64,000 bases of DNA. Source: a virus (lineage: Duplodnaviria > Heunggongvirae > Uroviricota > Caudoviricetes). Shown here piece after piece: positions 1-63,905 of the stretch (within the stretch, counting starts at the first letter, position 1; each line of letters opens with the position of its first letter). The position numbers were made by a program, and so were the translations under genes. The notes beneath the pieces were generated by a model. The model saw only the letters and a program-made list of their open reading frames with translations. It was not told where the DNA came from and did not search any database. Where the stretch lies: the IMG/VR virus record IMGVR_UViG_3300037189_028117, positions 18,977 to 82,976 of that record. One strand, 5' to 3'.

Positions 1-819
1 TTTGAACCTATGCTTGCTCATAAATGGTCTGATTTGAAAGATTCATTTTCGTTTCCAGTTTATACTCAACCAAAACTTGATGGTATGAGATGTGTAATTT
101 CTAAAAATGGTATGTTTTCTAGAAATGGAAAACCAATTATTTCTGCCCCTCATATCTTTGAATCTGTCAAAAAACTATTTGAAGAAGAACCTAATCTTGT
201 TTTGGATGGAGAATTATATAATCATCAATTAAAACATAACTTTAATAAGATTATATCTTTGGCAAAAAAATCAAAACCAAAACCTGAAGATTTATCTGAA
301 TCAAAAAATCTTATTCAATATTTCATTTACGACTGTTTCTTAAATGAAAAATTTGAAAAAAGATTCAAAAAAATATCAGAGATTTCAAATACTTATAGTG
401 ATTTCGTTAAACTTACAGAAACACATCTTGTTAATTCCAATTCTGAATTGGACATGTTATATGAAAGATGGATGGAAGAAGGTTACGAAGGACAAATGAT
501 AAGAATAAATTCTAAATATGAAAACAAAAGATCAAAGTTTTTAATAAAAAGAAAAGAATTTATTGATGAAGAATTTGAAATAATTGATATTCTTGATGGC
601 AAAGGAAATAGAGAAGGTTTGGCTACAAAAGTTATCTTTAAAAATAAAGACGGTTCAACTTTTGATACTGGAGTTATAGGTAATGATGAATATACTTCAT
701 CTTTATTAAGTAATAAACTTAAATATATTGGTAAAAAAGCTACAGTTGTTTATCAAAACTTAACTCCTGACGGAGCACCTAGGTTTGGTAAAATGAAAAT
801 AATAAGGGACTATGAGTAA
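1..819 (+). CDS. ATP-dependent DNA ligase (5' partial; ORF open to window start)
   Basis: Adenylation motif I KxDGxR seen as 'TQPKLDGMRC'; length/architecture of phage T4/T7-type ligase; frame open from nt 1. Confidence 0.8.
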   Translation, partial: FEPMLAHKWSDLKDSFSFPVYTQPKLDGMRCVISKNGMFSRNGKPIISAPHIFESVKKLFEEEPNLVLDGELYNHQLKHNFNKIISLAKKSKPKPEDLSESKNLIQYFIYDCFLNEKFEKRFKKISEISNTYSDFVKLTETHLVNSNSELDMLYERWMEEGYEGQMIRINSKYENKRSKFLIKRKEFIDEEFEIIDILDGKGNREGLATKVIFKNKDGSTFDTGVIGNDEYTSSLLSNKLKYIGKKATVVYQNLTPDGAPRFGKMKIIRDYE

Positions 820-1282
820 ATTGGTTTCAAAAGCTGCTTGTGTTTTAATTCAAAACAATCATCTTTATCTTGGAGTTTCAAGAAAAAACAATAAAAATGA
901 TTGGGGTTTGCCTGGTGGTAAATCTGAAGGGGAAGAAACTTTAAAATCTACAGCCGTTAGAGAATTATTTGAAGAAACTGGATTGATAATATCTGAAGAT
1001 AATTTAACCGAAATATTTTCCAGACAAGATGAAGAGTTTAATGTTGTTACATATTGTTTAAATATACCTTTTTCAAATTTAAATCAAGAACCAAAACAAT
1101 GCGAAGATGGATTAGTTAATTGGGTAACACAAGAAGATTTAATAGATGGTACATTTGGAATTTATAACAAATTATTATTTGAAAAAATATATAAACAAAG
1201 ACTTCATAATATGAAATCAAAATTTGGAGAAGATTATGTTAATAAGCAAATCTCAGAATATAGAATCGTCTACGAGGATTAA
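812..1282 (+). CDS. NUDIX hydrolase
   Basis: Nudix box 'GGKSEGEETLKSTAVRELFEETGL' (GX5EX7REUXEEXGU); start overlaps ligase stop. Confidence 0.8.
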   Translation: MSKLVSKAACVLIQNNHLYLGVSRKNNKNDWGLPGGKSEGEETLKSTAVRELFEETGLIISEDNLTEIFSRQDEEFNVVTYCLNIPFSNLNQEPKQCEDGLVNWVTQEDLIDGTFGIYNKLLFEKIYKQRLHNMKSKFGEDYVNKQISEYRIVYED

Positions 1283-1526
1283 AATAATATATGAAGGTTT
1301 ATCTTTCGTTTTTAATTCTGAAGATGAGTTAAGATTATGGGAAACAAAATTAAAATCAAATGATTTCTATATTGTTATAGAGGATGATGTTTGGGTTGAC
1401 TTAGAAGATATTGTAATTGAAAACACAATACCTTATAATGACAAACCTATTTGTCCTTATTGTAAAGTTGGACCTTCTTTGGAAGATGAAATTTGCCCCG
1501 TTTGCGAATCAAAAATAAATATATGA
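1224..1526 (+). CDS. hypothetical small protein with C-terminal zinc ribbon
   Basis: 'CPYCKV...CPVCESK' CxxC-x15-CxxC; start uncertain (overlaps Nudix 3' end). Confidence 0.35.
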   Translation: MEKIMLISKSQNIESSTRIKIIYEGLSFVFNSEDELRLWETKLKSNDFYIVIEDDVWVDLEDIVIENTIPYNDKPICPYCKVGPSLEDEICPVCESKINI

Positions 1527-2332
1527 TAAGTTTACAAGAAAGACAAGAGCATTATGAAGAATCTTATGATTATAAAATCATACCAAATCTTCCTATCGTG
1601 ATAAAATCTTCAATAAGAAATTTTGATGTTGTAACTAAAAATATCAAAAATCCTTATTCAAAAGAATTATATTCAATATTACAAAATTCACTTTTATATA
1701 CTGTAAAAGAAATTGATGGTGCGGTTTTCGCTTATGCTTATAATGGAGAATTTTCCATTGTAATAACAAATGATATTAATTCTAATAAAATATTTTGTAA
1801 AAACAAAATACAAGAAATAAGCTCTACCGTAAGTAGTTTACTTACATCTGCATTTAATAAATATTATTTTGCTTCAGATAACCCACCGGATATAATTGGT
1901 GATGTTATTTTTAAAACAAAATCATTTGCTTTGCCTTCTATAAATGAAACTGTTAATTATTTAATTTTAAAGCAAGGACAATGTAATTATCATAATATTT
2001 CTTATGTTTCATATTTTGAATTAATAAAGCATTTTTCAAAAGACAGAGTTAAAGAAATATTGGAATCAAAATCAACGGATGACAAGATAGATATAATAAA
2101 AGATTATTTAGATTTAGATATTTATGATAAATATGATCAGTTTTTCTTAAATGGATGGTCATGCTATAAGGCTCCACAAATAATCTCTAGTGGAGATCAA
2201 GAAATAACCAAAAAACGTTGGTTGTGTGATCTTGATTTTAATTATTTTGTTGACAATCGAGACGGATTGAGGCATATTCTGATGACCGGACAAGACGTAT
2301 TTGTTCCCGAAAGAGATATTATAAAAAAGTAA
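1493..2332 (+). CDS. Thg1-like (tRNA-His guanylyltransferase fold) protein, probably catalytically altered
   Basis: Colinear resemblance to Thg1 N-terminal half ('IVIKSSIRNF' vs 'VVVRLDGRNF'; 'AVFAYAYNGEFSIV' vs 'VIAYGQSDEYSFV'; 'QGQCNYHNISY' vs 'QADCHINNLYN') but metal-binding Asp positions are Ser/Gly; from memory, not searched. Confidence 0.4.
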   Translation: MPRLRIKNKYMISLQERQEHYEESYDYKIIPNLPIVIKSSIRNFDVVTKNIKNPYSKELYSILQNSLLYTVKEIDGAVFAYAYNGEFSIVITNDINSNKIFCKNKIQEISSTVSSLLTSAFNKYYFASDNPPDIIGDVIFKTKSFALPSINETVNYLILKQGQCNYHNISYVSYFELIKHFSKDRVKEILESKSTDDKIDIIKDYLDLDIYDKYDQFFLNGWSCYKAPQIISSGDQEITKKRWLCDLDFNYFVDNRDGLRHILMTGQDVFVPERDIIKK

Positions 2333-2336
2333 AACT

Positions 2337-2729
2337 ATGAAAAAACACAACTTAGATGTATGTTGGATTCAATATTCAGAAAAAGAATTAGAAGAGAATG
2401 CTAAATTATTCAGCCAAGCAGAGTGGAATTGGATTTCGAGCCGTCAGATTATATCTCAAAGATTTATTGAAAAATATTCAGATAAAATAGATTGGGGTTG
2501 GATTTCTGAACGTCAGAATTTATCTGAAGAATTTATGGAAAAACACCAAAATAAAATTAGTTGGTGTTATATTTCTCGATATCAAAAATTATCAGAAAAG
2601 TTTATAATAAAACATATAGATAAAATTGAGATTGATTGTTTAATTAATAATAGTTATATTTCTAGAAAATTAAAAAAACAAATAAAAAAAGAATATGAAC
2701 AATTAAAGTTATTGAAAGAAATTATATGA
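2337..2729 (+). CDS. 23-aa-repeat family protein (3 repeats)
   Basis: N-cap 'MKKHNLDV..YSEKELEEN', repeats 'ISxRQ.LSE.FIEKYSDKIDW', C-cap '..LKLLKEII'; ATGA overlap with next gene. Confidence 0.7.
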   Translation: MKKHNLDVCWIQYSEKELEENAKLFSQAEWNWISSRQIISQRFIEKYSDKIDWGWISERQNLSEEFMEKHQNKISWCYISRYQKLSEKFIIKHIDKIEIDCLINNSYISRKLKKQIKKEYEQLKLLKEII

Positions 2730-3046
2730 ATGACACTGATATTATTAATAAATATGTAAACTGGACAAGATTATCATGCGATGATTCTTTATCGGAAGAA
2801 TTTATCGAAAAATATCAAGATAAACTTAATTGGATGAACATATCTCAATATCAAAAATTATCAGAAAAATTTATTGAAAAACATTCAGATATAATTGATT
2901 GGGAACTTATTTCTGAATTTCAAGATTTATCCGAAGAATTTATAAAAAAACACTTAGATAAAATTGATATTTATTATTTAATGGACAATAGAAATATTCC
3001 AGAATATATTAAAAAAGAAATTGAAAATTTAAAAGAAATTATATGA
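2726..3046 (+). CDS. 23-aa-repeat family protein (3 repeats, divergent N-cap)
   Basis: 'LSEEFIEKYQDKLNW / LSEKFIEKHSDIIDW / LSEEFIKKHLDKIDI', ends 'NLKEII', ATGA junction. Confidence 0.7.
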   Translation: MNDTDIINKYVNWTRLSCDDSLSEEFIEKYQDKLNWMNISQYQKLSEKFIEKHSDIIDWELISEFQDLSEEFIKKHLDKIDIYYLMDNRNIPEYIKKEIENLKEII

Positions 3047-3352
3047 AAAAACATAATTTATTTTTAATATACAAGAAATACCCTGAAGAAGAATTAGAGG
3101 GAAATATTAACTTGTTTAATGAACAGGATTGGAATTATATTTCTTATTATCAAGATTTATCTGAAGATTTTATAGAGAAGCATTTAGATGAAGTTGATTG
3201 GGATAATATTTCTTTTAACCAAAAGTTATCAGAATCATTTATAAAAAAACATATTAATAAAATTAACTTTACTTTATTAATGAGAAATAAAAAAATTCTT
3301 TAAATTTGAAAGATAAAATTAAAAAAGAAATTGAATTATTGAAAGAAATTAT
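3043..3352 (+). pseudogene. 23-aa-repeat family member interrupted by a frameshift in an A7 run (ORF as called ends 3303; family C-cap '...KIKKEIELLKEII' continues in -1 frame to 3352)
   Basis: N-cap 'MKKHNLFLIYKKYPEEELEGNINLF', 2 repeats, stop after 'MRNKKIL'; downstream frame encodes 'NSLNLKDKIKKEIELLKEII*' with ATGA into next gene. Confidence 0.5.
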
Positions 3353-3790
3353 ATGAATCATAATTTAGATTTAGTAAACAAAACATATTCTGAAAAAACA
3401 TTAGAAAAATACATAGAATACTTTAATGATGAAGATTGGGAAGATATTTCTTATTGTCAAGATTTATCGGAATCATTTATTGAAAAATATTTTGATAAAG
3501 TTGATTGGTATTATATTTCTGGATATCAAATATTATCTGAAAAATTCATAGAAAAACATTTAGATAAACTTGATTGGGAATACATTTATAGCAACCAAAG
3601 GTTATCAGAATCTTTCATAGAAAGAAATTTGTATAAAGTTAATTGGATTGAAATATCTTGCTATCAAAAATTATCCGAAAAATTTGTTAAAAAACACTTA
3701 AATAAATTAGACGTTAAACAACTAATGTATAATGATAAAATTTCTAATAAAATAAAAAAAGAAATCTCAAAATTAATTGAAATCATATAG
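3353..3790 (+). CDS. 23-aa-repeat family protein (4 repeats)
   Basis: 'MNHNLDL..YSEKTLEKYIEYF', four 'xYQxLSExFIEKxxDKxxW' units, ends 'LIEII' (TAG stop). Confidence 0.7.
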   Translation: MNHNLDLVNKTYSEKTLEKYIEYFNDEDWEDISYCQDLSESFIEKYFDKVDWYYISGYQILSEKFIEKHLDKLDWEYIYSNQRLSESFIERNLYKVNWIEISCYQKLSEKFVKKHLNKLDVKQLMYNDKISNKIKKEISKLIEII

Positions 3791-3996: not shown

Positions 3997-5310
3997 ATGC
4001 TAACTGACGTACATACAATTAATCAATCTAAGTTTAAGGAACTTCTCAAGGTTCATATTCAATGTGAAGAAAATCTTCTCGTTATCGGTCCTTCTGGCGG
4101 TGGAAAAACCGTAATTGCAAAATCTGTTGCTGACCAACTTGGTTGCGACTTGGTTTATGTAAACCTTGCGGTCATGGAAAGAACTGACTTTCAGGGTTTC
4201 CCAGTATTAGCTGATGATAAGCAATCAGTTGATTATGCAACGCCAACCTTCCTTTGCTTTACGGATACCGCTGCTTCTCAAGAAATTTCAAAGCTTGAAC
4301 GTAACCGTTCTGCCCTTGATGAAAGCAAGGATAAGAAAGCAATTGCAGCTCTTGATGCTAGAATCAAGACTCTTAAGAATCAGGAAGAGGAGCAAAAGCT
4401 TATTAACCTCTACAATTCTGGAATTAGAACTCCAGACTTGGAAGCAAAGGTTAAGGCTGCTCTTGAAGAAAGAAAGAAGTCTCGTCCAATTGTTTTCCTT
4501 TTCGACGAAGTTGATAAGGCTGCAACGGAAACAAACCAGACTCTTCTTGAACTTCTTCAGTTCAAGTCTATCAACGGTCGTCCACTCAATGTAAAGGCTT
4601 GTATTCTTACAGCTAACTTACCAGATGAGCATGCTCATTCTAACCAAATCAGCCATGCAATTTCAAAGCGTTGTTCAACTTATCGTTTAGATATTGAATT
4701 TGATATTTGGCGTGACTGGGCATTTAAGAACGATGTTCACACCCATATTATTCAGTTCTTATCTTCGCATGATAAGCTTCTGTATCAGCCAGCACCAGAT
4801 GGTGACGCAACGGCTTATGCTCTTCCTTCTCCTCGTACATGGGTATCTGCAAGTGATAAACTTAAGACGCTCGATGCAATGAATGTTCCTGATAAGGATA
4901 GTCTTATGACTGCAATTATTGCTGGTAACGTTGGAGAAACAGCAGCGATTAAGTTTGCAAGTTGGTATGAACATTACCGTAAGTGGGACAGCGCAATTGA
5001 AGATCTTGTAGAAAAGGGTAAGGCCCCAGATTTATCAAAGGCTGGAGCACAAGAAGTTCTTATCGTTGCAATTGCAGCTTGTAGCAAGGTTTACACTGAG
5101 CTTAAGCCAAACAATGACGCTCGTATCAAGAAGGTTGTAAAGAATGTTTACAAGTGGCTTGGTACTCAATCAAAGGATGTTCAACACGGAGCTATCCGAA
5201 TTTCATTCGGTGGAGATTTCCATACTGCATACCAATATGGTTTCTCTAAGATTGAGGAATCAATGAATATCTTCAATGATCTAAAGAAGGATTTCGAAAA
5301 GTACAAGTAA
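3997..5310 (+). CDS. MoxR-like AAA+ ATPase
   Basis: Walker A 'VIGPSGGGKTV', Walker B 'IVFLFDEVDKA'; strong RBS; gene pair with downstream VWA protein; locally higher GC than surroundings. Confidence 0.8.
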   Translation: MLTDVHTINQSKFKELLKVHIQCEENLLVIGPSGGGKTVIAKSVADQLGCDLVYVNLAVMERTDFQGFPVLADDKQSVDYATPTFLCFTDTAASQEISKLERNRSALDESKDKKAIAALDARIKTLKNQEEEQKLINLYNSGIRTPDLEAKVKAALEERKKSRPIVFLFDEVDKAATETNQTLLELLQFKSINGRPLNVKACILTANLPDEHAHSNQISHAISKRCSTYRLDIEFDIWRDWAFKNDVHTHIIQFLSSHDKLLYQPAPDGDATAYALPSPRTWVSASDKLKTLDAMNVPDKDSLMTAIIAGNVGETAAIKFASWYEHYRKWDSAIEDLVEKGKAPDLSKAGAQEVLIVAIAACSKVYTELKPNNDARIKKVVKNVYKWLGTQSKDVQHGAIRISFGGDFHTAYQYGFSKIEESMNIFNDLKKDFEKYK

Positions 5311-5326
5311 TTTTCGAAAAAACACA

Positions 5327-5349
5327 GGGGGTAGGTTTTTCCTACCCCC
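5327..5349 (+). other. GC-rich hairpin between MoxR and VWA genes (no U-tract)
   Basis: 'gggggtagg-ttttt-cctaccccc' 9-bp stem; flanked by two copies of palindrome TTTTCGAAAA. Confidence 0.45.
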
Positions 5350-5384
5350 ATTCCCCCAATTCTATATATATTTTAAGAGGTAAA

Positions 5385-6836
5385 ATGGCAAATCTTCTCA
5401 ATGACCCAAAGAACATCGCTTCAGATGATTTCGAAGAACTTAATGAAAAACTAAAAATTGCGCAAATGTTAATTTCGCGCTCACCTGATAAGAAAGGTTT
5501 TCCTTTCGTATATTGTTTTACTGCTCAGAAAGAGCATGTTTTGGAAGAAATTAAAATTCCAATTTTTACAGACGAAAATGGTAATGAAGAATATTTTTAT
5601 ACCGCAGCTACTGACGGTAAGAAATATTATTGGTCACCTCAATTAATTCGTGAAATGACCCCGAGAGCATTAGCTATCATTATGGCTCATGAAACTTACC
5701 ATGTTGTTTTGCAACATTGTATTCCTGCAAGAACCGGAGGAAAATTAAATTCAATCTGGAATATTGCAGTAGATTACGTTGTTAACGGAATGATTGAACA
5801 TGACGTTCGTCAAAGTTGGCCAGGAATGAATACAAATGAAAATTTCCGAGGAAAGGAACATCCTCTTTGGAAAGAAAAGCTTGGAAAGCCTCTTTATTTT
5901 GATGAACTTCTTGACTCCATCAAAGAGCAAACTAAGAAAAAGAAAGCTGAAAGAGCTGCTTCTAAAAATGGAAAAGCTCAGAAGCCACCTAAAGCTCAAA
6001 AGAAAAAGACTCCACCATCAAAAGATGATTTAAGGTTTTATGCCGATTATTCTTTGTATGGTAAATCTGCCGAAGAGATTTATGACCAAATCATCAAGGC
6101 TATGGAAGATCTTACCAATGAAGAAATGCAAGAAGCTCTTGAAGGCATGGGTATATCTATGGACGAACATATGGAACATGGTTTGTCAAAGGGTCAATTG
6201 TTTAAAGAAATCCTCGATGCTGCAAGAAATGCAAAAAAGCTTGCTGGAACCGTACCTGGATCAATTGAAGATCAAATTCTAAAGCTTCAAGAACCAAAAC
6301 TATCTGCTTTTGATATTATCAGAAATGTTATTAGCAAAAGAAGAGATGAAAAAGGTAGAATCAATGATTGGTCAAGATTTAAGAGAAGAGGATTATCTCT
6401 CGGTCTTTATCAACCAAAGAAAAAGGATGATTACATTCGTTGGTGCGCATTCCTAGATACGTCTGGGTCTATGAGTCAAGATGACCTTACATATGCCGTA
6501 AGTCAGCTAAAATGTTTGGATGGTCGTTCGGAAGGGATTGTTATTCCTAATGATGCCCAACCTTACTGGGATAAAGCAACTGACATTAAAAGAGTTGGTG
6601 ACTTACAAAGAACAAAGATTGTTGGTCGTGGCGGAACGGTATTCAAGCAAATCTTTGATGAATTTCCTAAGAAAATGAAAAAGCCAATTGATGTATTAAT
6701 TATTCTAACCGACGGTGGAATTTTTGATATGCCAGAATTAAAGAGACCAAATGTTAAGGTTGTTTGGATTTTAACAAACGATATGAAGGGATTTAACCCA
6801 CCTTTCGGTGAAGTTGCTCCCCTCAGAACATACTAA
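5385..6836 (+). CDS. VWA-domain protein with N-terminal zincin-like (HEXXH) domain, MoxR partner
   Basis: 'MAHETYHVVLQH' HEXXH; MIDAS 'FLDTSGSMS'; classic AAA(MoxR)+VWA operon; RBS 'aagagg'. Confidence 0.75.
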   Translation: MANLLNDPKNIASDDFEELNEKLKIAQMLISRSPDKKGFPFVYCFTAQKEHVLEEIKIPIFTDENGNEEYFYTAATDGKKYYWSPQLIREMTPRALAIIMAHETYHVVLQHCIPARTGGKLNSIWNIAVDYVVNGMIEHDVRQSWPGMNTNENFRGKEHPLWKEKLGKPLYFDELLDSIKEQTKKKKAERAASKNGKAQKPPKAQKKKTPPSKDDLRFYADYSLYGKSAEEIYDQIIKAMEDLTNEEMQEALEGMGISMDEHMEHGLSKGQLFKEILDAARNAKKLAGTVPGSIEDQILKLQEPKLSAFDIIRNVISKRRDEKGRINDWSRFKRRGLSLGLYQPKKKDDYIRWCAFLDTSGSMSQDDLTYAVSQLKCLDGRSEGIVIPNDAQPYWDKATDIKRVGDLQRTKIVGRGGTVFKQIFDEFPKKMKKPIDVLIILTDGGIFDMPELKRPNVKVVWILTNDMKGFNPPFGEVAPLRTY

Positions 6837-6851
6837 AAAGGAAAAATAAAT

Positions 6852-7082
6852 ATGTATGCGATTGATGTGTATTTAAACAGTGGTAAAAAGGTAGAAGCTC
6901 TTCTTTGGAGTTGGAAACCAAAAGAAGGATATTTTGAAGCTTTAGTTGAATCAACTGGAGCAATAAAGAAATATCAATTAAGAGAAGTTAGAGGAGGTAA
7001 ATTCTATTCGGATAGAATCCGTGAAGTATCTACCTCGGAAGATTTCCTTGAAAAAGCAAAAAGAGATGGTTTCGAAGGTTAA
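6852..7082 (+). CDS. hypothetical protein (76 aa)
   Basis: ORF with AT-biased codon use consistent with neighbours; no recognisable motif. Confidence 0.35.
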   Translation: MYAIDVYLNSGKKVEALLWSWKPKEGYFEALVESTGAIKKYQLREVRGGKFYSDRIREVSTSEDFLEKAKRDGFEG

Positions 7083-7305
7083 GCATTTCGAAGAGTTGTG
7101 GGAAGAAGCGGAATCTTTATCCTTTATGGATGAAGATTCCGTTTTCATTTCTATAATTGATGAAATCAATAATTTAAAAAAAAATCCTCAAAATATGGGT
7201 AAAGTTTTGCTATTATTGAGCTTTATATCAAAAAAATATAATATTGATGTTTATGATTTGTTGAAAAAAGAAATTGATCAAATTAAAATTGACAATTGGG
7301 AATGA
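7021..7305 (+). CDS. hypothetical protein (94 aa)
   Basis: ORF abutting repeat-family cluster; overlaps previous ORF, start uncertain. Confidence 0.3.
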   Translation: MKYLPRKISLKKQKEMVSKVKHFEELWEEAESLSFMDEDSVFISIIDEINNLKKNPQNMGKVLLLLSFISKKYNIDVYDLLKKEIDQIKIDNWE

Positions 7306-7692
7306 ATGCTTATGGGGCATAATTTGAAGTTAAAAACACAAAAATATTCTGAAAAAGAATTGGAAAATGATATTAATTTATTTGATGAACAGGATTGGGT
7401 TTATATTTTTAAATATCAAAATCTATCTGAATGGTTTATTGAAAAACACTATGATAAAATTGATTGGAGTGAGATTTCTTGGTCCAAAAAATTATCTGAA
7501 GAATTTATTGAAAAATATTCAGATAAAGTTGATTGGTATTATATTTCTGGATATCAAAAATTATCTGAAAAATTTATAAAAAAACATATAGATAAAATTG
7601 ATATTGATTGGTTAATGGAAAATAACAAAATTTCTGAAAAATTAAAAAATAAAATTAAAAAAGAAATTAATTTATTGAAAGAAATTATATGA
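7306..7692 (+). CDS. 23-aa-repeat family protein (3 repeats)
   Basis: 'KYSEKELENDINLFDEQDW', repeats, 'INLLKEII', ATGA junction. Confidence 0.7.
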   Translation: MLMGHNLKLKTQKYSEKELENDINLFDEQDWVYIFKYQNLSEWFIEKHYDKIDWSEISWSKKLSEEFIEKYSDKVDWYYISGYQKLSEKFIKKHIDKIDIDWLMENNKISEKLKNKIKKEINLLKEII

Positions 7693-8060
7693 AAAGACAT
7701 AATTTAGATTTAGGTAGAATAAAATATTCTGAAAAAGAATTAGAAAAAAATATTAAATTATTTGATTCAATTGATTGGTATAATATTTCTAAAAATCAAA
7801 AATTATCTGAAGAATTTATAGATAAATATTCAAAGATAGTTAGCTGGAGAGATATTTCTTGTTGTCAATATTTATCAGAAGAATTTATGGAAAAACACCA
7901 AAATAAAATTAGTTGGTGTTATATTTCTTGCTGCCAAAAATTATCTGAAAAATTTATAACAAAACATATAGATAAAATTGATTTTGAAGGGTTAATGGAA
8001 AATAAATATATTTCTCATAAAATTAAAGAAGAAATTAAAATATTGAAAGAAATTATATGA
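7689..8060 (+). CDS. 23-aa-repeat family protein (3 repeats)
   Basis: 'MKRHNLDL..KYSEKELEKNIKLF', Cys-containing repeat variants 'CCQYLSEEFMEKHQNKISW', 'KILKEII'. Confidence 0.7.
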   Translation: MKRHNLDLGRIKYSEKELEKNIKLFDSIDWYNISKNQKLSEEFIDKYSKIVSWRDISCCQYLSEEFMEKHQNKISWCYISCCQKLSEKFITKHIDKIDFEGLMENKYISHKIKEEIKILKEII

Positions 8061-8356
8061 AACATAATTTAGATTTAAGTAATACAAAATATTCAGAAGA
8101 AACGTTAGAAAAATATATTAATTCATTTTCTGGATGGGATTGGTATTATATTTCTTACTGTCAAGTTTTATCTGAAAAGTTTATAGAAAAACATTCGGAT
8201 AAATTAAATTGGTATGAAATTTCTTTTTATCAAAAATTATCCGAAGAATTTATGAAAAAACATATTGATAAAATTGATATTGGTTGTTTAACGGAGAACA
8301 AAAATATTTCTGAAAAAATCAAACAAGAAATTCAAACTTTGAAAGAAATAATTTAA
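8057..8356 (+). CDS. 23-aa-repeat family protein (2 repeats)
   Basis: 'MKHNLDLSNTKYSEETLEKYINSF', 'IQTLKEII'. Confidence 0.7.
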   Translation: MKHNLDLSNTKYSEETLEKYINSFSGWDWYYISYCQVLSEKFIEKHSDKLNWYEISFYQKLSEEFMKKHIDKIDIGCLTENKNISEKIKQEIQTLKEII

Positions 8357-9842: not shown

Positions 9843-10199
9843 ATGGAAGATAAGTTAAATTTACCAGAATTAAATCCAAATTTATTCTCTTATTTAGAAG
9901 AAATAAAATTTAACAATCCAGTTAAATTAACAAATCAAGAAGAATTGCTTTTTAAATTAAAAGCTCACATTGATTTGCCTATGAATTTAATAGTCTTCAT
10001 TATAGAAGAATTTTTAAATGAAGCAAAATCGGCACTTATAATAGGAGATTCGATTGACATGAGGCCGATAGGTATGCTATACACGGACAAAGACTCTGAG
10101 ATTTCAAGGTTGGTCAAGTTAAAAAGACATAAAAATTTAAAACGTAGAATTATATATGGAAAAAAACATAAATATGAACATTTCAGAAGTTCCAAGTGA
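9843..10199 (+). CDS. hypothetical protein (118 aa)
   Basis: first ORF after promoter/operator region. Confidence 0.45.
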   Translation: MEDKLNLPELNPNLFSYLEEIKFNNPVKLTNQEELLFKLKAHIDLPMNLIVFIIEEFLNEAKSALIIGDSIDMRPIGMLYTDKDSEISRLVKLKRHKNLKRRIIYGKKHKYEHFRSSK

Positions 10200-10572: not shown

Positions 10573-10575
10573 ATT

Positions 10576-54566: not shown

Positions 54567-55472
54567 ATGTCAGTTTTAAAAGGAAAGTTTTTGAAAGTTT
54601 TGCCAGAGAATTATTCTCAACATTTTAAACTTTCTGTATCTAAAATTAAAACATTTGAGTCATGTAAGGCTAAGTTTTATTTTTCATATATAAAATATAT
54701 TCAAAAGAAAGAATGGGAATTCCAAATATTTGGATCATTTTTACATGAAGTTTTAGAAAGATTTGAGGAGTTCATAAAAAACGGTGATTCTTCTGAAGAA
54801 AATGTAATTATGAAAAAAGCTTTCAATAATGCTTGGAAAGCTGTACCGTTTAAAAACGGTGAAAAGTTTACAAAATGGTCAGAAAAAGTTTCCGTAGAAC
54901 AGAAGAAAGAATGTTTAACTATATTAAACAGCTACCTATCTTTAAGAAAATCTTTGAAAGAAAATGGTAATGTATCTAAAACACTGGATACAGAAAAGAA
55001 GTTTAATATTTTATTGCAAGAAAATTTATTAATAAATGGTTTTATAGATTTGTTACAAGAAGATAGTGATGGTATTTTACATGTAATTGATTATAAATCA
55101 AGTTCACATACAAAATATTTAAAGAAAGATAAGTTTCAATTACAAACATATGCTTATGCTCTTTTTCTTGAAAACCCAGAATTACAAAAAATAAGAGGTT
55201 CTTATGTTATGTTAAAACATAATTTTGAAAAAATAACATTTGAATTTACAAGAGATCAAATTATGAAATGTGAGAAAGAATTCATAAAATATTATGAACA
55301 AATGCAAGAAGAAAAGCTTTATAGACCTGAACCTGGACCCCTTTGCAAATATTGTGACGCTTTAGATTTATGTGAAGAAGGGCAAAAAAGAGTTGAGGAA
55401 GACAAGCAACGAGAAGAGAAAAAAAAGGATTACTCAATACAAAACATTGTAGTTGGTGAAAGGGAATGGTAA
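54567..55472 (+). CDS. PD-(D/E)XK nuclease with 4-Cys cluster (Cas4/AddB-like)
   Basis: 'GFIDLL', 'ILHVIDYKSS' (D...E/D-x-K), Cys at 'ESCKAKFYF' and 'CKYCDALDLCEE'. Confidence 0.65.
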   Translation: MSVLKGKFLKVLPENYSQHFKLSVSKIKTFESCKAKFYFSYIKYIQKKEWEFQIFGSFLHEVLERFEEFIKNGDSSEENVIMKKAFNNAWKAVPFKNGEKFTKWSEKVSVEQKKECLTILNSYLSLRKSLKENGNVSKTLDTEKKFNILLQENLLINGFIDLLQEDSDGILHVIDYKSSSHTKYLKKDKFQLQTYAYALFLENPELQKIRGSYVMLKHNFEKITFEFTRDQIMKCEKEFIKYYEQMQEEKLYRPEPGPLCKYCDALDLCEEGQKRVEEDKQREEKKKDYSIQNIVVGEREW

Positions 55473-55473
55473 A

Positions 55474-56670
55474 ATGATTTCAGTACAAGATATAGAATAT
55501 TGCAAAGTTAAAGTTAATTACAAGGCTGATTTAGAAAAGATCAATTCAGTAAAAAATGATATTATTAAAAATTTTAGAAACATGAAAGTGCCAGGATTTA
55601 GAACTGGCAAAGCATCTGATCAAGCGGTTTTTTATCATTACAAATCGGAAATAAATAACGCTGTCAAAAATGAATTGATAAGTCAATCAAATGACGATAT
55701 TTTATTTGAAACTAAAATAAGACCAATAGGGCAACCACAAATCAAAAGTGTATTTTTTGATGGTAAAATATTCGAGTGTGAAATTGTCTATTCAAAAAAA
55801 CCAGATTTTGAATTAAAACAATATAAAGAACTTGAGGTTGTAGATCCACATATGGATTCTTCTGTAGAAGAAATTACAGAAAGCACAATTCAAGAATTAA
55901 GAAACCAATTTTCAGAAGTTAGAGCTTATGCCGATGAAGACTTTATACAAGATGGAGATAAAGTGACCTTATCATATAAGTTTGAGGATGGTACAGAAGA
56001 AGAAGGTACTTTATATACTGTTGGATCAAACGGGTTTCCTGGTTTCGACCAAAATATATATGGCATGTCTCCCGGAGACGAAAGAGATTTTCAAATTGAA
56101 TTAAATGGTAAAGTCCAAAAATGCCATGTTCAATTTCATATGGGTATGAAAAAATCTCCAGCTGAGCTAAATGATTCTTTGGCAATAAAAGTTGGTCTAC
56201 AAAATATAGATGAACTTTATGTTAATGTAAAGGCAATGTCTGAGCAACAATTTAAAGCACAAAAAGATGCAAAGATTGCAGATCAAATTATTAAAATCTT
56301 ATGTGATTCACATGAAATTGTATCTCCAGAATGGATTGTTGAGCTAGAAGCGCAACAATTAACATTAAAAGAAGGTCAAAAGTTTAGCGAACTTGATGAT
56401 AATGTAAAAAAACATTATTTAGAAAAAGCTGAAAAAAATGTTAAATTGGCATTTATTTTAGATTCTATTCAAATGGAAGAACCAGAATCTAAAATTTCAG
56501 AAAACGAAGCTCTTCAATTAATTCACCAAAACCTAACCCAAAGAGGTATTAAAGCGCAAGAATGGATGGAGAACGCTGCAAAAAATGGAATGTTGCAAGG
56601 TGTTCTAACAAAATTCAGAAATGATTTTACCATTCAATGGTTGGTGGATAATTGTAAAAAGATTTCCTAA
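55474..56670 (+). CDS. tig: trigger factor-like chaperone
   Basis: N-domain 'MKVPGFRTGKASDQAV' (TF 'GFRKGKVP'), PPIase-like 'FPGFDQNIYGMSPGDERDF' (TF 'IPGFEDGIKGHKAGEEF'); start taken at 'MISVQD'. Confidence 0.7.
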   Translation: MISVQDIEYCKVKVNYKADLEKINSVKNDIIKNFRNMKVPGFRTGKASDQAVFYHYKSEINNAVKNELISQSNDDILFETKIRPIGQPQIKSVFFDGKIFECEIVYSKKPDFELKQYKELEVVDPHMDSSVEEITESTIQELRNQFSEVRAYADEDFIQDGDKVTLSYKFEDGTEEEGTLYTVGSNGFPGFDQNIYGMSPGDERDFQIELNGKVQKCHVQFHMGMKKSPAELNDSLAIKVGLQNIDELYVNVKAMSEQQFKAQKDAKIADQIIKILCDSHEIVSPEWIVELEAQQLTLKEGQKFSELDDNVKKHYLEKAEKNVKLAFILDSIQMEEPESKISENEALQLIHQNLTQRGIKAQEWMENAAKNGMLQGVLTKFRNDFTIQWLVDNCKKIS

Positions 56671-57040: not shown

Positions 57041-57385
57041 ATGAAAAACATACCATGTAGAATAAAAACACATTCATCAAATAAGAGTGAAAACTTCTTT
57101 GATTTTTATTCTTTTGTTTATGATATTTCTTTTGTCAGAGAAAACATTGATAAAATGAAACCTTATGATTGGTATATGATAAGTCACACTCACGAGTTAG
57201 ATATGGATTTCATTCAAACTTATGAAGACAAACTAGTTCTTGATGCTTTGTGTAGATTTCAAAATTTAAGCGAAGAATTTATAAGAAAAAATATATCATT
57301 AATAAATATTAATGATCTTAAAGTAAATAAGAATATTGATGAAAAAATAATTGAAGAAATTAAATTATTAAAAGATATTATATAG
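57041..57385 (+). CDS. 23-aa-repeat family protein (1 repeat, divergent N-term)
   Basis: 'CRFQNLSEEFIRKNISLININDLKVNKNIDEKIIEEIKLLKDII'. Confidence 0.6.
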   Translation: MKNIPCRIKTHSSNKSENFFDFYSFVYDISFVRENIDKMKPYDWYMISHTHELDMDFIQTYEDKLVLDALCRFQNLSEEFIRKNISLININDLKVNKNIDEKIIEEIKLLKDII

Positions 57386-57690: not shown

Positions 57691-57706
57691 TTTTAGAAAG
57701 AAAAAT

Positions 57707-60700: not shown

Positions 60701-61306
60701 GAATATTTAGCTGGTGATAGAATTGCTGCGTATAATGGTTTCTTTATGAGGGGTTCTATGGCATTTTCTCATTTAGAGAAATTATTACCAAGACCACCAG
60801 AGAGTTTCTCGGAATCCGATTTAAAAAAGTATAATAAAAAAGTAAATCTATTACAAGGTGAAGTTAAGTCAATTTTTGAATTTAAAGTAAAGAAAGAAGA
60901 TTCAAAAATGAGAGGTCAATTAATGGCCAAGATAGCCATAGAAGATATTTATGGTTCTCAAATTGTTTTGACTTGTTTTCCGGATGGATGGGAAAATTTA
61001 AAAAAGAAATGTCTTAAAATGTCCGGTGGAAAGCAAAAATTTGATGTAGGTTGCGGTATTTACTTTAATGGCAATCTTAGTTGGTATAATGGGGAATTGG
61101 GTATAACTTATGAGGATGTGGTAAAACTTTGTTCTCCACCTCAATTGCCTGCGGATTTAAAGGCAAAGAAAATAAATATGAGAGATAAATCTTTAAAAGA
61201 AGAAACGGTTGTTTTTGATGAAGATGATCGAAATATTCTTCTGGAAGATATTGAACAAGAATTAATTGAAATGGGAAACTCTGGGTTTGAAGATGAAGAT
61301 CTTTAA
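57707..61306 (+). CDS. dnaE: DNA polymerase III alpha subunit (DnaE-type, PHP domain)
   Basis: PHP 'YVSLHNHTTFSISDS', 'AVTDHGSL', polymerase core colinear with DnaE, 1199 aa. Confidence 0.9.
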   Translation: MSESYQKIGYVSLHNHTTFSISDSLISPKDLIKRTAELGQKAVAVTDHGSLAGLWDAFQEAKKTKVKLIPGIEMYFMDDLNSDTERMRHLILLSKNEVGYRNLLLLTAESFDNKKIVHKKVVPRATWETLEKYKEGLICSTACANGILGSLINEKKYDEAFKTAERLKSIFGDDFAIELQAHALKRKATSYSGEIDQVSTNKRLREIAEKLDVKCIVTTNAHYVHPEQHEAHDVLLAIASGQPINSGQRLKYENVPLHIRDEEDIFTKLSRITYDKEFSKKCIENSKYFADKCEFPEWIDPKYSNPSGKELPHFPVKDQEDYSEFLEWNKENQIEGKQEDHMYLRYRCEIGLKKKVPEEKHQIYKERLESELYVLEHHDFSSYMLIVMDFLEYARKNNMSVGVGRGSAGGVLTCYLVDIHISDPIKYGLIFERFHNIEKASFPDLDCDVASESKEAVENYLIKKYGKDNVANVSNISSLTPKVYMRSIARTFVYGGDRKTAVSIGTNLADAVPADLKEAPIDDIISLPLISEYVKPKEEGGAGYTEVSKYAKDLSKQYAAWSTHAAGLVIGKRPLKGLVPLRKDKDNNIALEFEKERAEANGLVKMDILGLSTLDVIDETRRLIKSLGKEVPKPISEFDYDVYDKKTYDLISEGRTLCVFQLGTSAGTIELCKRIKPKSIEDIAVINSLARPSARDFRDTFIKTRDGELEIKLLHPLLANALNPTYGFPIYEESLMFITKDVANFSLLDSDRCRKITKAKGKDKSKLEALKKDFIDGAAKNGVSEEKAKEIFAFIEGYSAYGFNKSHAIFYSYLGFYTAYLKANYPLEYLVSCLKHEVNSNAKIAEDNIAKIKEEIRAMKVKIVPPDINTSDTSYKIIDSNTLMTGLDAIKFMGKDAMPEILSKRPFSSFEDFLTRIDGSKVRAPAIQALAAAGCLDSLGVSRKMIFLYASDYKKKLGAFLKKKEKSPNKYTEFNYPWPEEPDWTIPEKCALETFYIGEYLAGDRIAAYNGFFMRGSMAFSHLEKLLPRPPESFSESDLKKYNKKVNLLQGEVKSIFEFKVKKEDSKMRGQLMAKIAIEDIYGSQIVLTCFPDGWENLKKKCLKMSGGKQKFDVGCGIYFNGNLSWYNGELGITYEDVVKLCSPPQLPADLKAKKINMRDKSLKEETVVFDEDDRNILLEDIEQELIEMGNSGFEDEDL

Positions 61307-61763
61307 AAAACTTATAAAATATATACGTAAATCTAAATTAGATTTAATTGATAAAAAATACTCCGAAGAAGAGTTAGAAAAACATGCTGATTCATTTAAT
61401 GAATTGGATTGGTATTATATTTCTAAATATCAAAGTTTATCAGAATCATTTATAAAAAAATATTCACATAAATTTTGGTGGGGTGATATTTCTGCTTATC
61501 AAAGTTTATCCGAAAAATTTATTGAAAAATACTCAGATAAAGTTAATTGGACTTACATATCTAGATATCAAGAGTTATCTGAAACATTTGTAGAAAAATA
61601 TTTAGATAAAGTTAATTGGATTCACATTTCTTATTCTCAAAAATTATCCGAGCCATTTATAAAAAAATATTTTAATAAAATTGATGTTGATTGTTTAATG
61701 AATAATAAATATATCTCAAAAGAATTCAAAAATGAAATAAAAACATTAAAAGAAATAATATGA
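61293..61763 (+). CDS. 23-aa-repeat family protein (4 repeats)
   Basis: start overlaps dnaE 3' end; caps and repeats canonical. Confidence 0.7.
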   Translation: MKIFKKLIKYIRKSKLDLIDKKYSEEELEKHADSFNELDWYYISKYQSLSESFIKKYSHKFWWGDISAYQSLSEKFIEKYSDKVNWTYISRYQELSETFVEKYLDKVNWIHISYSQKLSEPFIKKYFNKIDVDCLMNNKYISKEFKNEIKTLKEII

Positions 61764-62062
61764 AAAAACATAATTTGCATTTGATGTATAAAAAGTATTC
61801 AGAAAAAGATTTGGAATATAATTGTCATTTATTTAATAATGATGATTGGTATCGTATTTCTTATTATCAAAATTTATCTGAAAAATTCATAGAAAAATAT
61901 TTAGATAAATTAGATTGGAAATGGATATCTAGATTTCAAAAACTATCAGAAGAATTTATCAAAAAACACGTAAATAAAATTGATATTGATTTTTTAATGA
62001 AAAACAATGATATTTCAGAAAAAACAAAAAAAGAAATAGAAACATTAAAAGAGATTATATGA
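61760..62062 (+). CDS. 23-aa-repeat family protein (2 repeats)
   Basis: canonical. Confidence 0.7.
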   Translation: MKKHNLHLMYKKYSEKDLEYNCHLFNNDDWYRISYYQNLSEKFIEKYLDKLDWKWISRFQKLSEEFIKKHVNKIDIDFLMKNNDISEKTKKEIETLKEII

Positions 62063-62499
62063 ATGAACAGAATGTAGACTTACATAATAAAAGATATTCT
62101 GAAGAAGAATTAGAAAATAATATTAATTTATTTGATCTTGATCATTGGTATATTTTATGTTATAGACAAAAACTATCCGAAAACTTTATAGAAAAATATT
62201 CAGATAAAATTCATTGGGAGGAAATTTCTTGGGCCCAAGATTTGTCAGAGTCATTTATTGAAAAATATTCAAATAAAGTTAAATGGTTTGAAATTAGCAT
62301 ATATCAGGAATTATCAGAACAATTTATAGAAAAACATTCAGATAAAGTTAATTGGAATGAAATTTCAAGATGCCAAAAGCTATCTGAAGGATTTATTAAA
62401 AAACATATAAATAAAATAAAAATATCTTCTTTAATAGATAATGAAAATATTTCAGAAAAAACTAAAGAAGAAATAAAAACATTGAAAGAAATTATATGA
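62059..62499 (+). CDS. 23-aa-repeat family protein (4 repeats)
   Basis: canonical. Confidence 0.7.
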   Translation: MNEQNVDLHNKRYSEEELENNINLFDLDHWYILCYRQKLSENFIEKYSDKIHWEEISWAQDLSESFIEKYSNKVKWFEISIYQELSEQFIEKHSDKVNWNEISRCQKLSEGFIKKHINKIKISSLIDNENISEKTKEEIKTLKEII

Positions 62500-62789
62500 A
62501 ATATTTTGTAATCATATTATTTAATGAGACTTGGGATTATGATATATCACTGGCAACAAAAAATCATAGCGACATAAATTGCGATTTTGTGTCAGAAGAA
62601 AACGTAGATGCTTTAACGTTTGAATATTTCGAAGCAAAAAATTTATATCATTATTGGAAGGATTGTGATGTAGAAAAAATCGTTCTTGATGTTTATTTGG
62701 TTGAAGCAAATAAAGATAATAAAGTAAAACAAATATTAAAAATAAAAGAAGAAATTGAAGAAATAAAAACGTTGAAAGAAATTATATGA
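62496..62789 (+). CDS. hypothetical protein ending 'IKTLKEII' (non-repeat cassette inside family cluster)
   Basis: junction and tail shared, body unrelated. Confidence 0.45.
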   Translation: MKYFVIILFNETWDYDISLATKNHSDINCDFVSEENVDALTFEYFEAKNLYHYWKDCDVEKIVLDVYLVEANKDNKVKQILKIKEEIEEIKTLKEII

Positions 62790-63100
62790 AAAAACATAAT
62801 TTAGATTTAATACGAAAAAAATATTCGGAAAAAGAATTGGAAGAATATATTAAATTCTTTAGTGATTATGATTTGGAGGTAATTTCTTATACTCAAAATT
62901 TATCCGAAGAATTCATTGAGAAATATTCAGATAAAGTTGATTGGTATTATATTTCTTCTCGACAAAATTTATCTGAAGAATTTATAAGAAAACATATAAA
63001 TAAAATTCATATTAGTTGGTTGATGAATAATAATTTTATTTCTAGAAAATTAAAAAATAAAATTAAAAAAGAAATAAAAACATTGAAAGAAATTATATGA
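62786..63100 (+). CDS. 23-aa-repeat family protein (2 repeats)
   Basis: canonical. Confidence 0.7.
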   Translation: MKKHNLDLIRKKYSEKELEEYIKFFSDYDLEVISYTQNLSEEFIEKYSDKVDWYYISSRQNLSEEFIRKHINKIHISWLMNNNFISRKLKNKIKKEIKTLKEII

Positions 63101-63465
63101 AACATAACTTAGATTTAAAATTTGAAATATATTCTGAAAAAGAATTAGAAAATAATATGCATTTATTTGATTTATATGATTGGGACTGCATTTGTAGGTA
63201 TCAGATGTTATCTGAAAGATTTATAGAAAAATATTCAGATGAAGTTAGTTGGGGTTTAATTTGTTTTTATCAAAATTTATCTGAAAAATTTATAGAAAAA
63301 TATTCAGATAAAGTTGATTGGTATTATATTTCTTATTCTCAAAAGTTATCTGAAAATTTTATAGAGAAACACATAAATGAAATTAATATTAATAAGTTAA
63401 TGCAAAACAAAAATATTTCAAAACAAATAATAGAAGAACTAAAAACTTTAAAAGATATAATATAG
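63097..63465 (+). CDS. 23-aa-repeat family protein (3 repeats)
   Basis: canonical, 'LKTLKDII' TAG stop. Confidence 0.7.
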   Translation: MKHNLDLKFEIYSEKELENNMHLFDLYDWDCICRYQMLSERFIEKYSDEVSWGLICFYQNLSEKFIEKYSDKVDWYYISYSQKLSENFIEKHINEININKLMQNKNISKQIIEELKTLKDII

Positions 63466-63467
63466 AA

Positions 63468-63905
63468 ATGATTTATACTAATGAAAATATTTTATATTCA
63501 AATTACCAATATATAGCCCATCAATGCAACTGCGTTTCGAAAAACTCTGCAGGTTTGGCCAAATCGATATTTGAAAAATATACTTACTCAAATATTTACC
63601 AAAATAGAGAAAAGAACGATTCTCCCGGAAATATAATAATTTCAGGAAATGGCGATGATCAAAGATATATAATTAATATGCTTTCTCAATTTTATCCAGG
63701 AACGCCAAAGTATGAAACATATGAACAAAGATTAGGTTGGTTTAAATCCTGTATACTTAAAATATCCGAAAGTAAAAATATTAACCAAATAGCTTTTCCG
63801 TTTAATATTGGTTGCGGTTTGGCCGGAGGAAAATGGGAAGATTATGAAAATTTAATATCTTTTCTTGATAATTATTGCGAAGTTTTCATATGCAAAATTC
63901 AATGA
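63468..63905 (+). CDS. TARG1/OARD1-like macro domain protein
   Basis: 'IAHQCNCVSKNSAGLAKSIFEKY' vs TARG1 '[23 protein letters not shown]'; 'FPFNIGCGLAGGKWEDYENL' vs 'MPRIGCGLDRLQWENV'. Confidence 0.6.
   Translation: MIYTNENILYSNYQYIAHQCNCVSKNSAGLAKSIFEKYTYSNIYQNREKNDSPGNIIISGNGDDQRYIINMLSQFYPGTPKYETYEQRLGWFKSCILKISESKNINQIAFPFNIGCGLAGGKWEDYENLISFLDNYCEVFICKIQ

Follow-up and report, generated by a model that had tools for sequence, protein, structure and literature searches.

Three unrelated phage NADAR proteins, those of T4, Bas32 and Bas60, restore phage growth on DarTG1 hosts (PMC11825919), and the phage macrodomain AdfM (PhiKZ gp104) defeats DarTG2 (PMC13309987). In vitro, ADP-ribose (ADPr) linked to guanine is hydrolyzed by NADAR proteins of all four subfamilies, and the YbiA and general NADAR families also hydrolyze cytosine-linked ADPr, on DNA and on RNA (PMC11125620, PMC12945103). 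Guanine-linked ADPr is removed from RNA by NADAR proteins as well (PMC11833690). ALC1-like macrodomains, the Gln-type protein SCO6735 included, strip the thymidine-linked ADPr made by DarT (PMC9411070). Macro, NADAR and Nudix are each found in about half of jumbo phages and co-occur above chance (PMC9503650), and fusions and neighborhoods joining Macro, NADAR and SLOG have been described (PMC9503650, PMC7824862). Here we analyzed a 64-kb stretch of viral DNA, positions 18,977 to 82,976 of IMG/VR record IMGVR_UViG_3300037189_028117 (in the following, the window), which contains genes of all three kinds:

812-1282, + strand: Nudix hydrolase, 156 residues
15487-16155, + strand: stand-alone NADAR protein, 222 residues
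63468-63905, + strand: stand-alone macrodomain protein, 145 residues

These open reading frames (ORFs) are present exactly as given in a first-pass annotation made from the sequence alone. Searches with Pfam and PHROGs profiles bore out the domain identities assigned there, and for the NADAR and macrodomain proteins AlphaFold2 models did so too. The activities it cited, of NADAR enzymes on guanine-linked ADPr (PMC11125620, PMC12945103) and of macrodomains on DarT-made thymidine-linked ADPr (PMC9411070), agree with the published data, in the latter case for the ALC1-like class. The viral label of the record also holds: the NADAR block of the window shares its gene order with two IMG/VR contigs, one of 459 kb and one of 435 kb, and the final 600 bp are nearly identical to the start of another IMG/VR contig, 3300032307_000952 (L001; related loci and proteins are designated L and P with a number). 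The window is therefore a fragment of an uncultured huge phage with relatives of 435 to 459 kb. Judging from conserved residues, this phage encodes two intact predicted ADPr-cleaving enzymes of different folds, plus a Nudix hydrolase. Because of the AdfN (T4, Bas32 and Bas60 NADAR) and AdfM precedents, we tentatively favor the reading that the NADAR and macrodomain proteins remove base-linked ADPr from phage nucleic acids with complementary specificity (guanine and cytosine versus thymine and uracil). We see this as the most likely role, at a probability somewhat short of even.

The NADAR protein matches PF08719 (E 1.2e-20; 74.8 bits versus a cutoff of 35.1) and phrog_1017, and it matches Escherichia coli YbiA (2b3w) with an E value of 2.8e-15. 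Its AlphaFold2 model has a predicted local distance difference test (pLDDT) score of 90.8. When this model was compared with solved structures by Foldseek, significant matches were obtained only to YbiA (template modeling score, 0.74 on the target) and to PnNADAR (8bau). The predicted fold is YbiA-like, with a helical core and small flanking beta-sheets. According to the model, the protein differs from plain YbiA by a long beta-hairpin insertion (approximately residues 50 to 79) ahead of the E-H motif, by a Lys-rich N terminus of low model confidence, and by a C-terminal extension of two to three added helices. The ADPr contacts were taken from the PnNADAR crystal structure (PMC11543638) and mapped by alignment to YbiA, PnNADAR and 39 homologs. 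In this alignment, seven of the eight ADPr-contacting or catalytic residues are kept:

PnNADAR E43: E81 in the window NADAR protein
PnNADAR K50: K88
PnNADAR R79: S112 (not conserved; K113 is adjacent)
PnNADAR W89: W120
PnNADAR R93: R124
PnNADAR E125: E157
PnNADAR D130: E162 (Asp to Glu)
PnNADAR W133: W165

Position 125 of PnNADAR separates the subfamilies: it is Glu in the YbiA type, Asp in the DarT1-linked (DarG1/BC4488) type, and His in the T4 type (PMC11543638). E157 at this position places the window protein, as a prediction, in the YbiA type. It was not matched by PF08010 (gp30.3) or by the PADLOC DarG1-type profiles. No DarT1 toxin gene, the mark of DarG1, lies beside it, and Pfam searches of the window gave no match to an ADP-ribosyltransferase (ART) family of any kind. 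Here and below, Pfam and NCBIfam scans of the window cover its + strand ORFs other than 21 of the 23 ORFs of a repeat family, with a Pfam threshold of E ≤ 1e-3. The riboflavin N-glycosidase equivalog TIGR02464 was rejected for the NADAR protein (62.4 bits versus a cutoff of 73.7), and no riboflavin genes were found in the window.

Close homologs of the NADAR protein are few. An exhaustive search of 1.8 billion representatives yielded 10 proteins at E ≤ 1e-30, whereas a word-indexed protein search gave only 2. Several of the nearest homologs share the full-length architecture, and the nearest in cultured phages are those of Tequintavirus (T5-like phages; ~35% identity). The position of the gene is kept in the colinear contigs L084, L086 and L167.

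The Pfam match of the macrodomain protein is marginal (PF01661; E 7.8e-5; 23 bits versus a cutoff of 22), and its PHROGs match, phrog_335, is annotated as 'phosphatase'. The macrodomain assignment is secured by 88 homologs from a database search, which share invariant motifs, by matches of the family profile to the solved macrodomains Bt_1257 (E 2e-13), Poa1p, SCO6735, DarG and TARG1, and by an AlphaFold2 model with a pLDDT score of 94.9. The modeled fold is a three-layer alpha/beta/alpha arrangement with the ADPr cleft loops G-x-G and G-C-G-L-A-G-G. The nearest solved relatives, whether judged by sequence, by profile or by structure, are Bt_1257 and SCO6735. Among 34 aligned homologs, I16, N21, Q74, P77, R88, P111, C116, G117, A119 and G121 are invariant, and H18, Q19, C20, C22, G115, L118, G120 and W123 are at least 90% conserved. 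When aligned with TARG1, Q74 stands at the position of Lys84 ('T-K') and A119 at that of Asp125 ('G-C-G-L-D'); Q74 also stands at Lys80 of DarG. With Gln and Ala at the Lys and Asp positions, TARG1/DarG-type catalysis was rejected. The protein fits the Gln-type SCO6735/Bt_1257 subclass of ALC1-like (TARG1/DarG class) macrodomains. Thus, its earlier description as TARG1/OARD1-like is correct at the level of the class and incorrect for the active site, which has Q74 and A119 and is of the SCO6735/Bt_1257 type.

Residues H18, N21, Q74, G115 and G117 correspond to H24, N27, Q85, G126 and G128 of SCO6735. In SCO6735, activity is lost in the mutants Q85A and Q85E, almost lost in N27S, and impaired in G128E and, through misfolding, in H24Y (PMC9411070). 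SCO6735 clears DarT-made thymidine-linked ADPr faster than DarG or TARG1 does, rescues cells from DarT, and leaves the guanine adduct untouched (PMC9411070). It also removes uracil-linked ADPr from RNA. Members of the subclass have a lengthened 'mobile loop' past the Gln. The spacing between the Gln and the Arg is 13 residues in the window protein, as in Bt_1257, with a different loop sequence; in most family members this stretch is 4 to 5 residues longer.

Within the colinear huge-phage clade, the macrodomain gene is found at three different places while the NADAR gene keeps its place. This is the behavior of a retained yet mobile accessory gene. Members of the Gln-type family were also found outside phages, in L248 (P0008; 54% identity) and as P0044 (45%). 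Such relatives occur in a eukaryote-like context, with copine, HSP70, ankyrin and RasGEF neighbors, in a protist transcriptome, and in giant-virus bins, indicating that the family moves between phages, giant viruses and protists.

If the favored reading is correct, the NADAR and macrodomain proteins would be separately placed, 'orphan antitoxin-like' erasers of nucleobase-attached ADPr. The NADAR protein would be a ribosyl N-glycosidase that cleaves ADPr from guanine and perhaps, as a YbiA-type enzyme, from cytosine, in DNA or RNA. The Gln-type macrodomain would free N3 of thymine (on single-stranded DNA) or uracil (on RNA) from ADPr; the distal ribose would be held in place by Q74 and N21, and no catalytic lysine would be involved. 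Both erasers could keep phage DNA and RNA usable once infection triggers a host ART toxin of the DarT1 or DarT2 kind, or a relative of these. The Nudix hydrolase would at most degrade released ADPr, NAD-type RNA caps or other nucleoside-diphosphate compounds. The substrates, the counter-defense role and any cooperation between the genes are what we infer from the folds, family placement, active-site conservation and gene context described here.

Several observations weigh against this reading. S112 of the NADAR protein replaces the phosphate-binding R79 of PnNADAR, and E. coli YbiA and T4 NADAR, although active in vitro, did not protect cells from DarT1 in one study (PMC11125620). In the macrodomain protein, the DNA-positioning residues K34 and K89 of SCO6735 have no positional equivalents: K34 aligns with A28, there is no Lys at Gln+4, and K81 is the sole nearby lysine. 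Its calculated isoelectric point (pI) is 5.8; the family has a median of 8.2, and the part of SCO6735 that aligns with it has a value of 9.6. Relatives of the NADAR protein are fused to nicotinamide mononucleotide (NMN) adenylyltransferase or adjoin RNA ligases, and relatives of the macrodomain protein adjoin a viral PARP (22 of 80 loci) or lie near SLOG and HAD_SAK RNA-repair genes. It has also been argued that phage Macro, NADAR and Nudix proteins target mainly soluble ADPr derivatives (PMC9503650). In the window, the Nudix and NADAR genes are 14 kb apart and the NADAR and macrodomain genes 47 kb apart, with unrelated genes between them and no shared operon. By independence, all three domains would be found together in about one jumbo phage in eight (0.56 × 0.48 × 0.45; PMC9503650), and their co-occurrence in the window is expected because of these high base rates. 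The counter-defense role proposed in the first-pass annotation is thus plausible by precedent, with AdfN acting against DarTG1 (PMC11825919) and AdfM against DarTG2 (PMC13309987), but writer-eraser, NAD+ metabolism and RNA-repair roles fit the gene context of the relatives equally well.

The three genes had also been described as a putative toolkit, and nothing in the window shows them acting in a coordinated way: NADAR, macrodomain and Nudix genes do not form a unit there. We looked for linkage in related loci. Among 80 IMG/VR loci seeded with the macrodomain protein, a NADAR gene lies within 10 kb in 7. In 6 of the 80, it starts no more than 450 bp downstream on the same strand; uniform placement over a 20-kb span would give a ~5% chance each of such closeness. 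These loci represent two lineages that are ~33% identical to each other. In the reverse test, a macrodomain gene of the window type adjoins NADAR in 1 of the 80 best NADAR loci, indicating that this adjacency is a minority arrangement outside the PARP clusters described below. As in the window, both genes are present but distant from each other in the huge-phage relatives L084/L013 and L086/L023. Since the adjacency recurs in two lineages, the functional tie between the macrodomain family and NADAR is real in some viruses; there is none for Nudix.

The Nudix hydrolase itself is well supported (PF00293, E 6.8e-13, 49 bits versus a cutoff of 21; phrog_1198, E 7e-25), and its Nudix box, G-x5-E-x7-R-E-U-x-E-E-x-G-U, is intact at G36 to L58. 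Its start overlaps the stop of a DNA ligase gene, and a Thg1-like gene is located two genes downstream. The nearest solved relatives are MutT-type proteins, NUDT6 and diphosphoinositol polyphosphate phosphohydrolases, which are uninformative on the substrate. Nudix enzymes of the ADP-ribose pyrophosphatase subgroup have a conserved proline ~16 residues past the Nudix box; the window protein lacks it, its prolines being only at positions 34, 86 and 94. Over 138 residues, it shares 43% identity with the Nudix protein encoded next to pseT in Acinetobacter T4-like phages, which have an rnlA-alc-pseT-Nudix cluster with a gp30.3-type NADAR gene 2.6 kb away. Orthology to T4 NudE was rejected (29% identity over 62 residues, in the Nudix-box region only). 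A strict Nudix-box pattern was found in none of the 80 macrodomain loci and in 1 of the 80 NADAR loci. With phmmer, a weak Nudix match (E 1.9e-5) near the macrodomain gene was confined to a single group of three similar contigs (L024-L026). There is, accordingly, no consistent linkage of Nudix to the macrodomain or NADAR genes across the 160 related loci, and the earlier suggestion that the Nudix enzyme works with the other two found no counterpart there.

A recurrent viral gene cluster emerged from the related loci and is the more interesting lead. In 22 of the 80 macrodomain-seeded loci, a member of the macrodomain family adjoins a gene for a ~500-residue WGR + PARP_reg + PARP protein with a conserved H-Y-E triad. 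In viral IMG/VR loci seeded with this PARP, the macrodomain gene is present in 47 of 78, NADAR in 35, and both in 32. The commonest order is PARP, macrodomain, NADAR on one strand; in a variant, the macrodomain gene overlaps the PARP start. In L170, for example, PARP is at 9920-11482, the macrodomain gene at 13417-13908, and NADAR at 14242-14697. PARP clusters were found in L004-L011, L015, L055, L057, L064-L080 and L170-L247, and eight of the closer IMG/VR macrodomain relatives are PARP-linked (L004-L009, L011 and L015; 38-50% identity). No description of a viral PARP-macrodomain-NADAR cluster was found among the papers searched. In the window and the next 11 kb, no PARP was detected at Pfam E ≤ 1e-3 or by phmmer, and the best match in a search with the PARP hidden Markov model at --max had an E value of 0.1. 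The related huge-phage loci likewise showed no PARP, and contigs related to the window phage are absent from the 82 IMG/VR PARP relatives. The 435-kb relative L023 encodes, at 16610-17947, a 445-residue protein with a HAD_SAK_2 ('Swiss Army Knife' RNA repair) domain followed by a weak PARP/Tpt1-type ART-like segment. Its gene is 6 kb from the macrodomain gene and 3.6 kb from a YpsA SLOG gene. An ART assignment for this segment was not significant (E 0.005 with Pfam and 0.79 with PDB).

These clusters bring up a different role, in which the macrodomain and NADAR proteins would be erasers for a PARP-like or KptA-like writer that is encoded by the phage outside the window, or has been lost, and with which the virus would itself reversibly ADP-ribosylate proteins or nucleic acids instead of reversing the work of a host toxin. 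The frequency of PARP in the macrodomain loci, the counts in the PARP loci and the eight PARP-linked closer relatives speak for such a writer, as does the L023 protein near the macrodomain gene. Its ART-like match is, however, not significant, the window and the 11 kb beyond it yielded neither PARP nor another ART, and contigs related to the window phage contributed none of the 82 PARP relatives. We regard a role of this kind as unlikely. Because PARP, macrodomain and NADAR occur in this order in 32 of the 78 viral PARP loci, we also considered that PARP-written ADP-ribosylation is run by the virus, that the Gln-type macrodomain and the hairpin NADAR are its erasers, and that the writer is elsewhere in the genome, or has been lost and has left orphan erasers to be reused against host toxins; we give this scenario a small chance of being right. 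Alternatively, the enzymes may act on soluble ADPr derivatives and the NAD+ economy. They would then destroy ADPr-based immune signals or toxic metabolites, candidates being cyclic ADPr variants, ADPr-1''-phosphate and O-acyl-ADPr, or feed ADPr back to NAD+ synthesis, and the Nudix hydrolase would complete the process by diphosphate cleavage. A survey covering 21,191 viral proteomes has been used to argue for such a role (PMC9503650, PMC7824862), and it is consistent with fusions among the NADAR relatives. P0095 (44% identity to the window NADAR protein), in which both the hairpin and the C-terminal extension recur, carries a NadD-type NMN adenylyltransferase in fusion (TIGR00482; 113 bits, exceeding the cutoff). 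A comparable fusion, to an NMN/nicotinic acid mononucleotide adenylyltransferase, occurs in P0108, and the NADAR protein of L069 is fused to a YspA/SLOG domain. The acidic pI of the macrodomain protein, too, speaks against a nucleic-acid substrate. In contrast, the Pfam scan of the window detected no NadV, NadM, Nampt, SLOG or DUF4326 (nor ART, PARP or Tpt1/KptA), every NADAR protein tested to date hydrolyzes base-linked ADPr, the sole tested Gln-type macrodomain is a DNA/RNA and protein de-ADP-ribosylase, and Ser30 of Poa1p is not conserved in the macrodomain protein. On balance, action on soluble derivatives seems rather improbable to us.

Genes of RNA-repair type are also present in the window:

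1493-2332, + strand: Thg1-like protein of the tRNA 5'-end repair family (PF04446, E 2.6e-12), two genes downstream of the Nudix gene
8931-9650 and 35443-36273: two metallophosphatases, one of them ApaH/Pnkp-like
12223-13398, + strand: RnlA-like RNA ligase (TIGR02308, E 3.9e-14, below the cutoff), 2 kb upstream of the NADAR gene
28419-29312, + strand: RlaP-type nucleotidyltransferase (PF10127, E 7.4e-17)

With this set at hand, the enzymes could help the phage to repair RNA, by clearing ADPr by-products of 2'-phosphate removal or by freeing RNA ends and bases of ADPr and NAD-type groups for the religation of cleaved tRNAs. Related loci fit this idea: in L167, an RNA ligase gene (PF09414) is two genes upstream of NADAR; in L081, the macrodomain gene is near RNA_lig_T4_1, YpsA, DUF4326 and HAD_SAK_2; and the nearest homologs of the Nudix hydrolase in cultured phages belong to the rnlA-pseT-Nudix cluster mentioned above, with NADAR 2.6 kb away. 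Activity on RNA is documented as well, as NADAR proteins remove guanine-linked ADPr from it (PMC11833690). However, neither KptA/Tpt1 nor a 2H phosphoesterase was found in the window, and the distances are of kilobases rather than those of operon neighbors, with 50 kb between the macrodomain gene and the ligase gene. To our knowledge, T4-type RnlA/Pnkp repair yields no ADPr cyclic phosphate (ADPr>p), which also counts against this role, and we consider it very unlikely. We are just as doubtful that the three genes have no joint function at all, in which case a MutT-like nucleotide sanitizer, a YbiA-like N-glycosidase of riboflavin intermediates and a generic macrodomain would share the ADPr theme by name only. 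Such a view draws on the dispersal of the genes, on the MutT-type proteins among the best solved Nudix relatives, on the 62 bits of the NADAR protein with TIGR02464, and on the high base rate of each domain in jumbo phages. Against it stand the TIGR02464 cutoff, which this score does not reach, the lack of riboflavin genes in the window, the recurrence of macrodomain-NADAR adjacency and fusions in other viruses, and the retention of both genes across the huge-phage clade despite relocation of the macrodomain gene.

As to the phage, the window is AT-rich (G+C, 24-34%), and its long ORFs are all on the + strand, on which 104 ORFs were counted. No tRNA genes were found and no Rfam families matched in the window. 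In the region shared with L001, the macrodomain protein is identical and the adjoining repeat protein differs by one residue. Beyond the overlap, contig 3300032307_000952 carries genes for RecA-like, RuvC, DnaJ, primase and sigma-factor proteins. The part of the window from 36 to 52 kb is colinear with a 61-kb NCBI contig. When 10 kb of the window was compared by megablast with 50,697 phage records, nothing matched, and tblastn with the 613-residue SPFH protein listed below gave distant matches only. Other products of the window include the following:

10-819, + strand: ATP-dependent DNA ligase (PF01068, E 2.5e-19; NF006592, E 9e-30), directly upstream of the Nudix gene and overlapping it
3997-6836: pair of a MoxR-type AAA ATPase and a DUF2201 metallopeptidase/VWA protein
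31091-32932: SPFH/flotillin-like membrane protein, 613 residues, with a long Ala/Glu/Lys-rich region
34362-35411: alanine dehydrogenase/PNT-type enzyme, full-length
39498-39755: ribosomal protein S21
44871-45413: translation initiation factor IF3
45410-45922: peptide deformylase with a SEC-C motif
55453-56670: trigger factor

Further Pfam and NCBIfam matches in the window were to a PQ-loop protein, DksA, ClpP, DUF192, FtsK, a histidine phosphatase, topoisomerase I, HNH, thioredoxin, a DnaG zinc finger, SbcCD, a PD-(D/E)XK nuclease and a DnaE-type polymerase. Around the MoxR/VWA pair, the 4-kb bin 4001-8000 has a G+C content of 0.34, compared with ~0.25 in the neighboring bins; the pair is kept upstream of the NADAR block in L084 and L086. 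The SPFH protein and the alanine dehydrogenase are unusual cargo for a phage. For the SPFH protein, the top match in cultured phages is that of the 469-kb Sinorhizobium phage Phosso. The translation block, from S21 to IF3, peptide deformylase and thioredoxin, was also found in the related contig L249.

The window further contains 23 paralogous small ORFs made of tandem ~24-residue repeats (W..IS..Q.LSE.FIEKH.DK); the three that were scanned match phrog_3532, which is annotated as of unknown function. They are organized in arrays:

2337-3790, 7306-8356, 11348-11938, 16152-16598 and 27255-28156: repeat ORFs
29309-30269, 33002-34057, 57041-57385, 61266-62499 and 62786-63465: repeat ORFs

One repeat ORF directly follows the NADAR gene, and a run of them directly precedes the macrodomain gene; in L023, the gene after the macrodomain gene encodes a DUF4116 repeat protein. 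Thirty ORFs, including nonparalogous ones, end in LKEII or LKDII (for example at the junctions at 2726, 7689, 8057, 62786 and 63097). Start codons are preceded by the consensus AAAGAAATAATATGA; there are 15 occurrences of the pattern AARGAWATWATATGA, and at 33 of the 104 starts there is an overlap with the preceding stop as ATGA. Together, these features suggest that the shared LKEII/LKDII C terminus is the coding face of a conserved translation-coupling signal.

If the favored reading holds, an uncultured huge phage would possess two erasers for complementary bases, the NADAR protein for guanine and cytosine and the macrodomain for thymine and uracil. The counter-defense principle known from AdfN and AdfM would then be extended by a YbiA-type NADAR variant and by a Gln-type macrodomain, a subclass that has no tested phage member. 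In practical terms, the two proteins are candidates for broad-spectrum nucleic-acid de-ADP-ribosylases. The counter-defense idea has already been published and the gene set is common in large phages; the finding therefore adds an example and not a principle.

Compared with AdfN (T4 gp30.3, Bas32 and Bas60; PMC11825919), the window NADAR protein is likewise a phage-encoded stand-alone NADAR with no adjoining toxin, and it has the catalytic Glu and Lys, with T4 E36 and K43 corresponding to E81 and K88. AdfN-Bas32 came from the Tequintavirus group, which among cultured phages is nearest to the window protein; the match is by group, not to the Bas32 sequence. In contrast to AdfN, the window protein is only ~35% identical to Tequintavirus NADARs, it is predicted to be of the YbiA type (Glu) rather than of the T4 (His) or DarG1 (Asp) type, and it has the ~30-residue beta-hairpin and the C-terminal helices, which are rare among database representatives.

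The macrodomain protein shares with SCO6735 and Bt_1257 the Gln at the position of TARG1 Lys84 and DarG Lys80, held by a conserved Asn (Q74 and N21; PMC9411070). It differs from them in that it is only ~20% identical, is acidic and not strongly basic, does not keep K34 and K89 in place, and has the second Cys of the H-Q-C-N-C motif, which is specific to the viral family. AdfM is also a small phage-encoded ALC1-like macrodomain with the conserved Asn, but it has kept a lysine of the DarG type (F-P-T-K), and the phage nucleus imports it; identity between the two is only 26% (E 7e-5; hhalign probability, 91%). The catalytic Lys84/Asp125 dyad of TARG1/OARD1 is absent from the window protein, where Q74 and A119 take these positions. 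Unlike DarG, it consists of the macrodomain only, with Gln for Lys80, and has neither the DarT-binding C-terminal domain nor an adjoining DarT. In line with this, it scored 15.8 bits with the NCBIfam DarG model NF048014 (cutoff, 250), and the PADLOC DarG profile matched the macrodomain part only (E 1.4e-5). From yeast Poa1p, an ADP-ribose 1''-phosphate phosphatase, it differs by lacking Ser30 and by the loop that follows the central strand; nor was a Tpt1 of the tRNA-splicing type found in the window. Taken as a whole, the locus follows the pattern of the 2022 survey (PMC9503650), in which a large phage has Macro, NADAR and Nudix genes that stand alone, close to genes for host manipulation and RNA repair. 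It differs from that pattern in nothing essential and is one more instance of it, from an uncultured huge phage.

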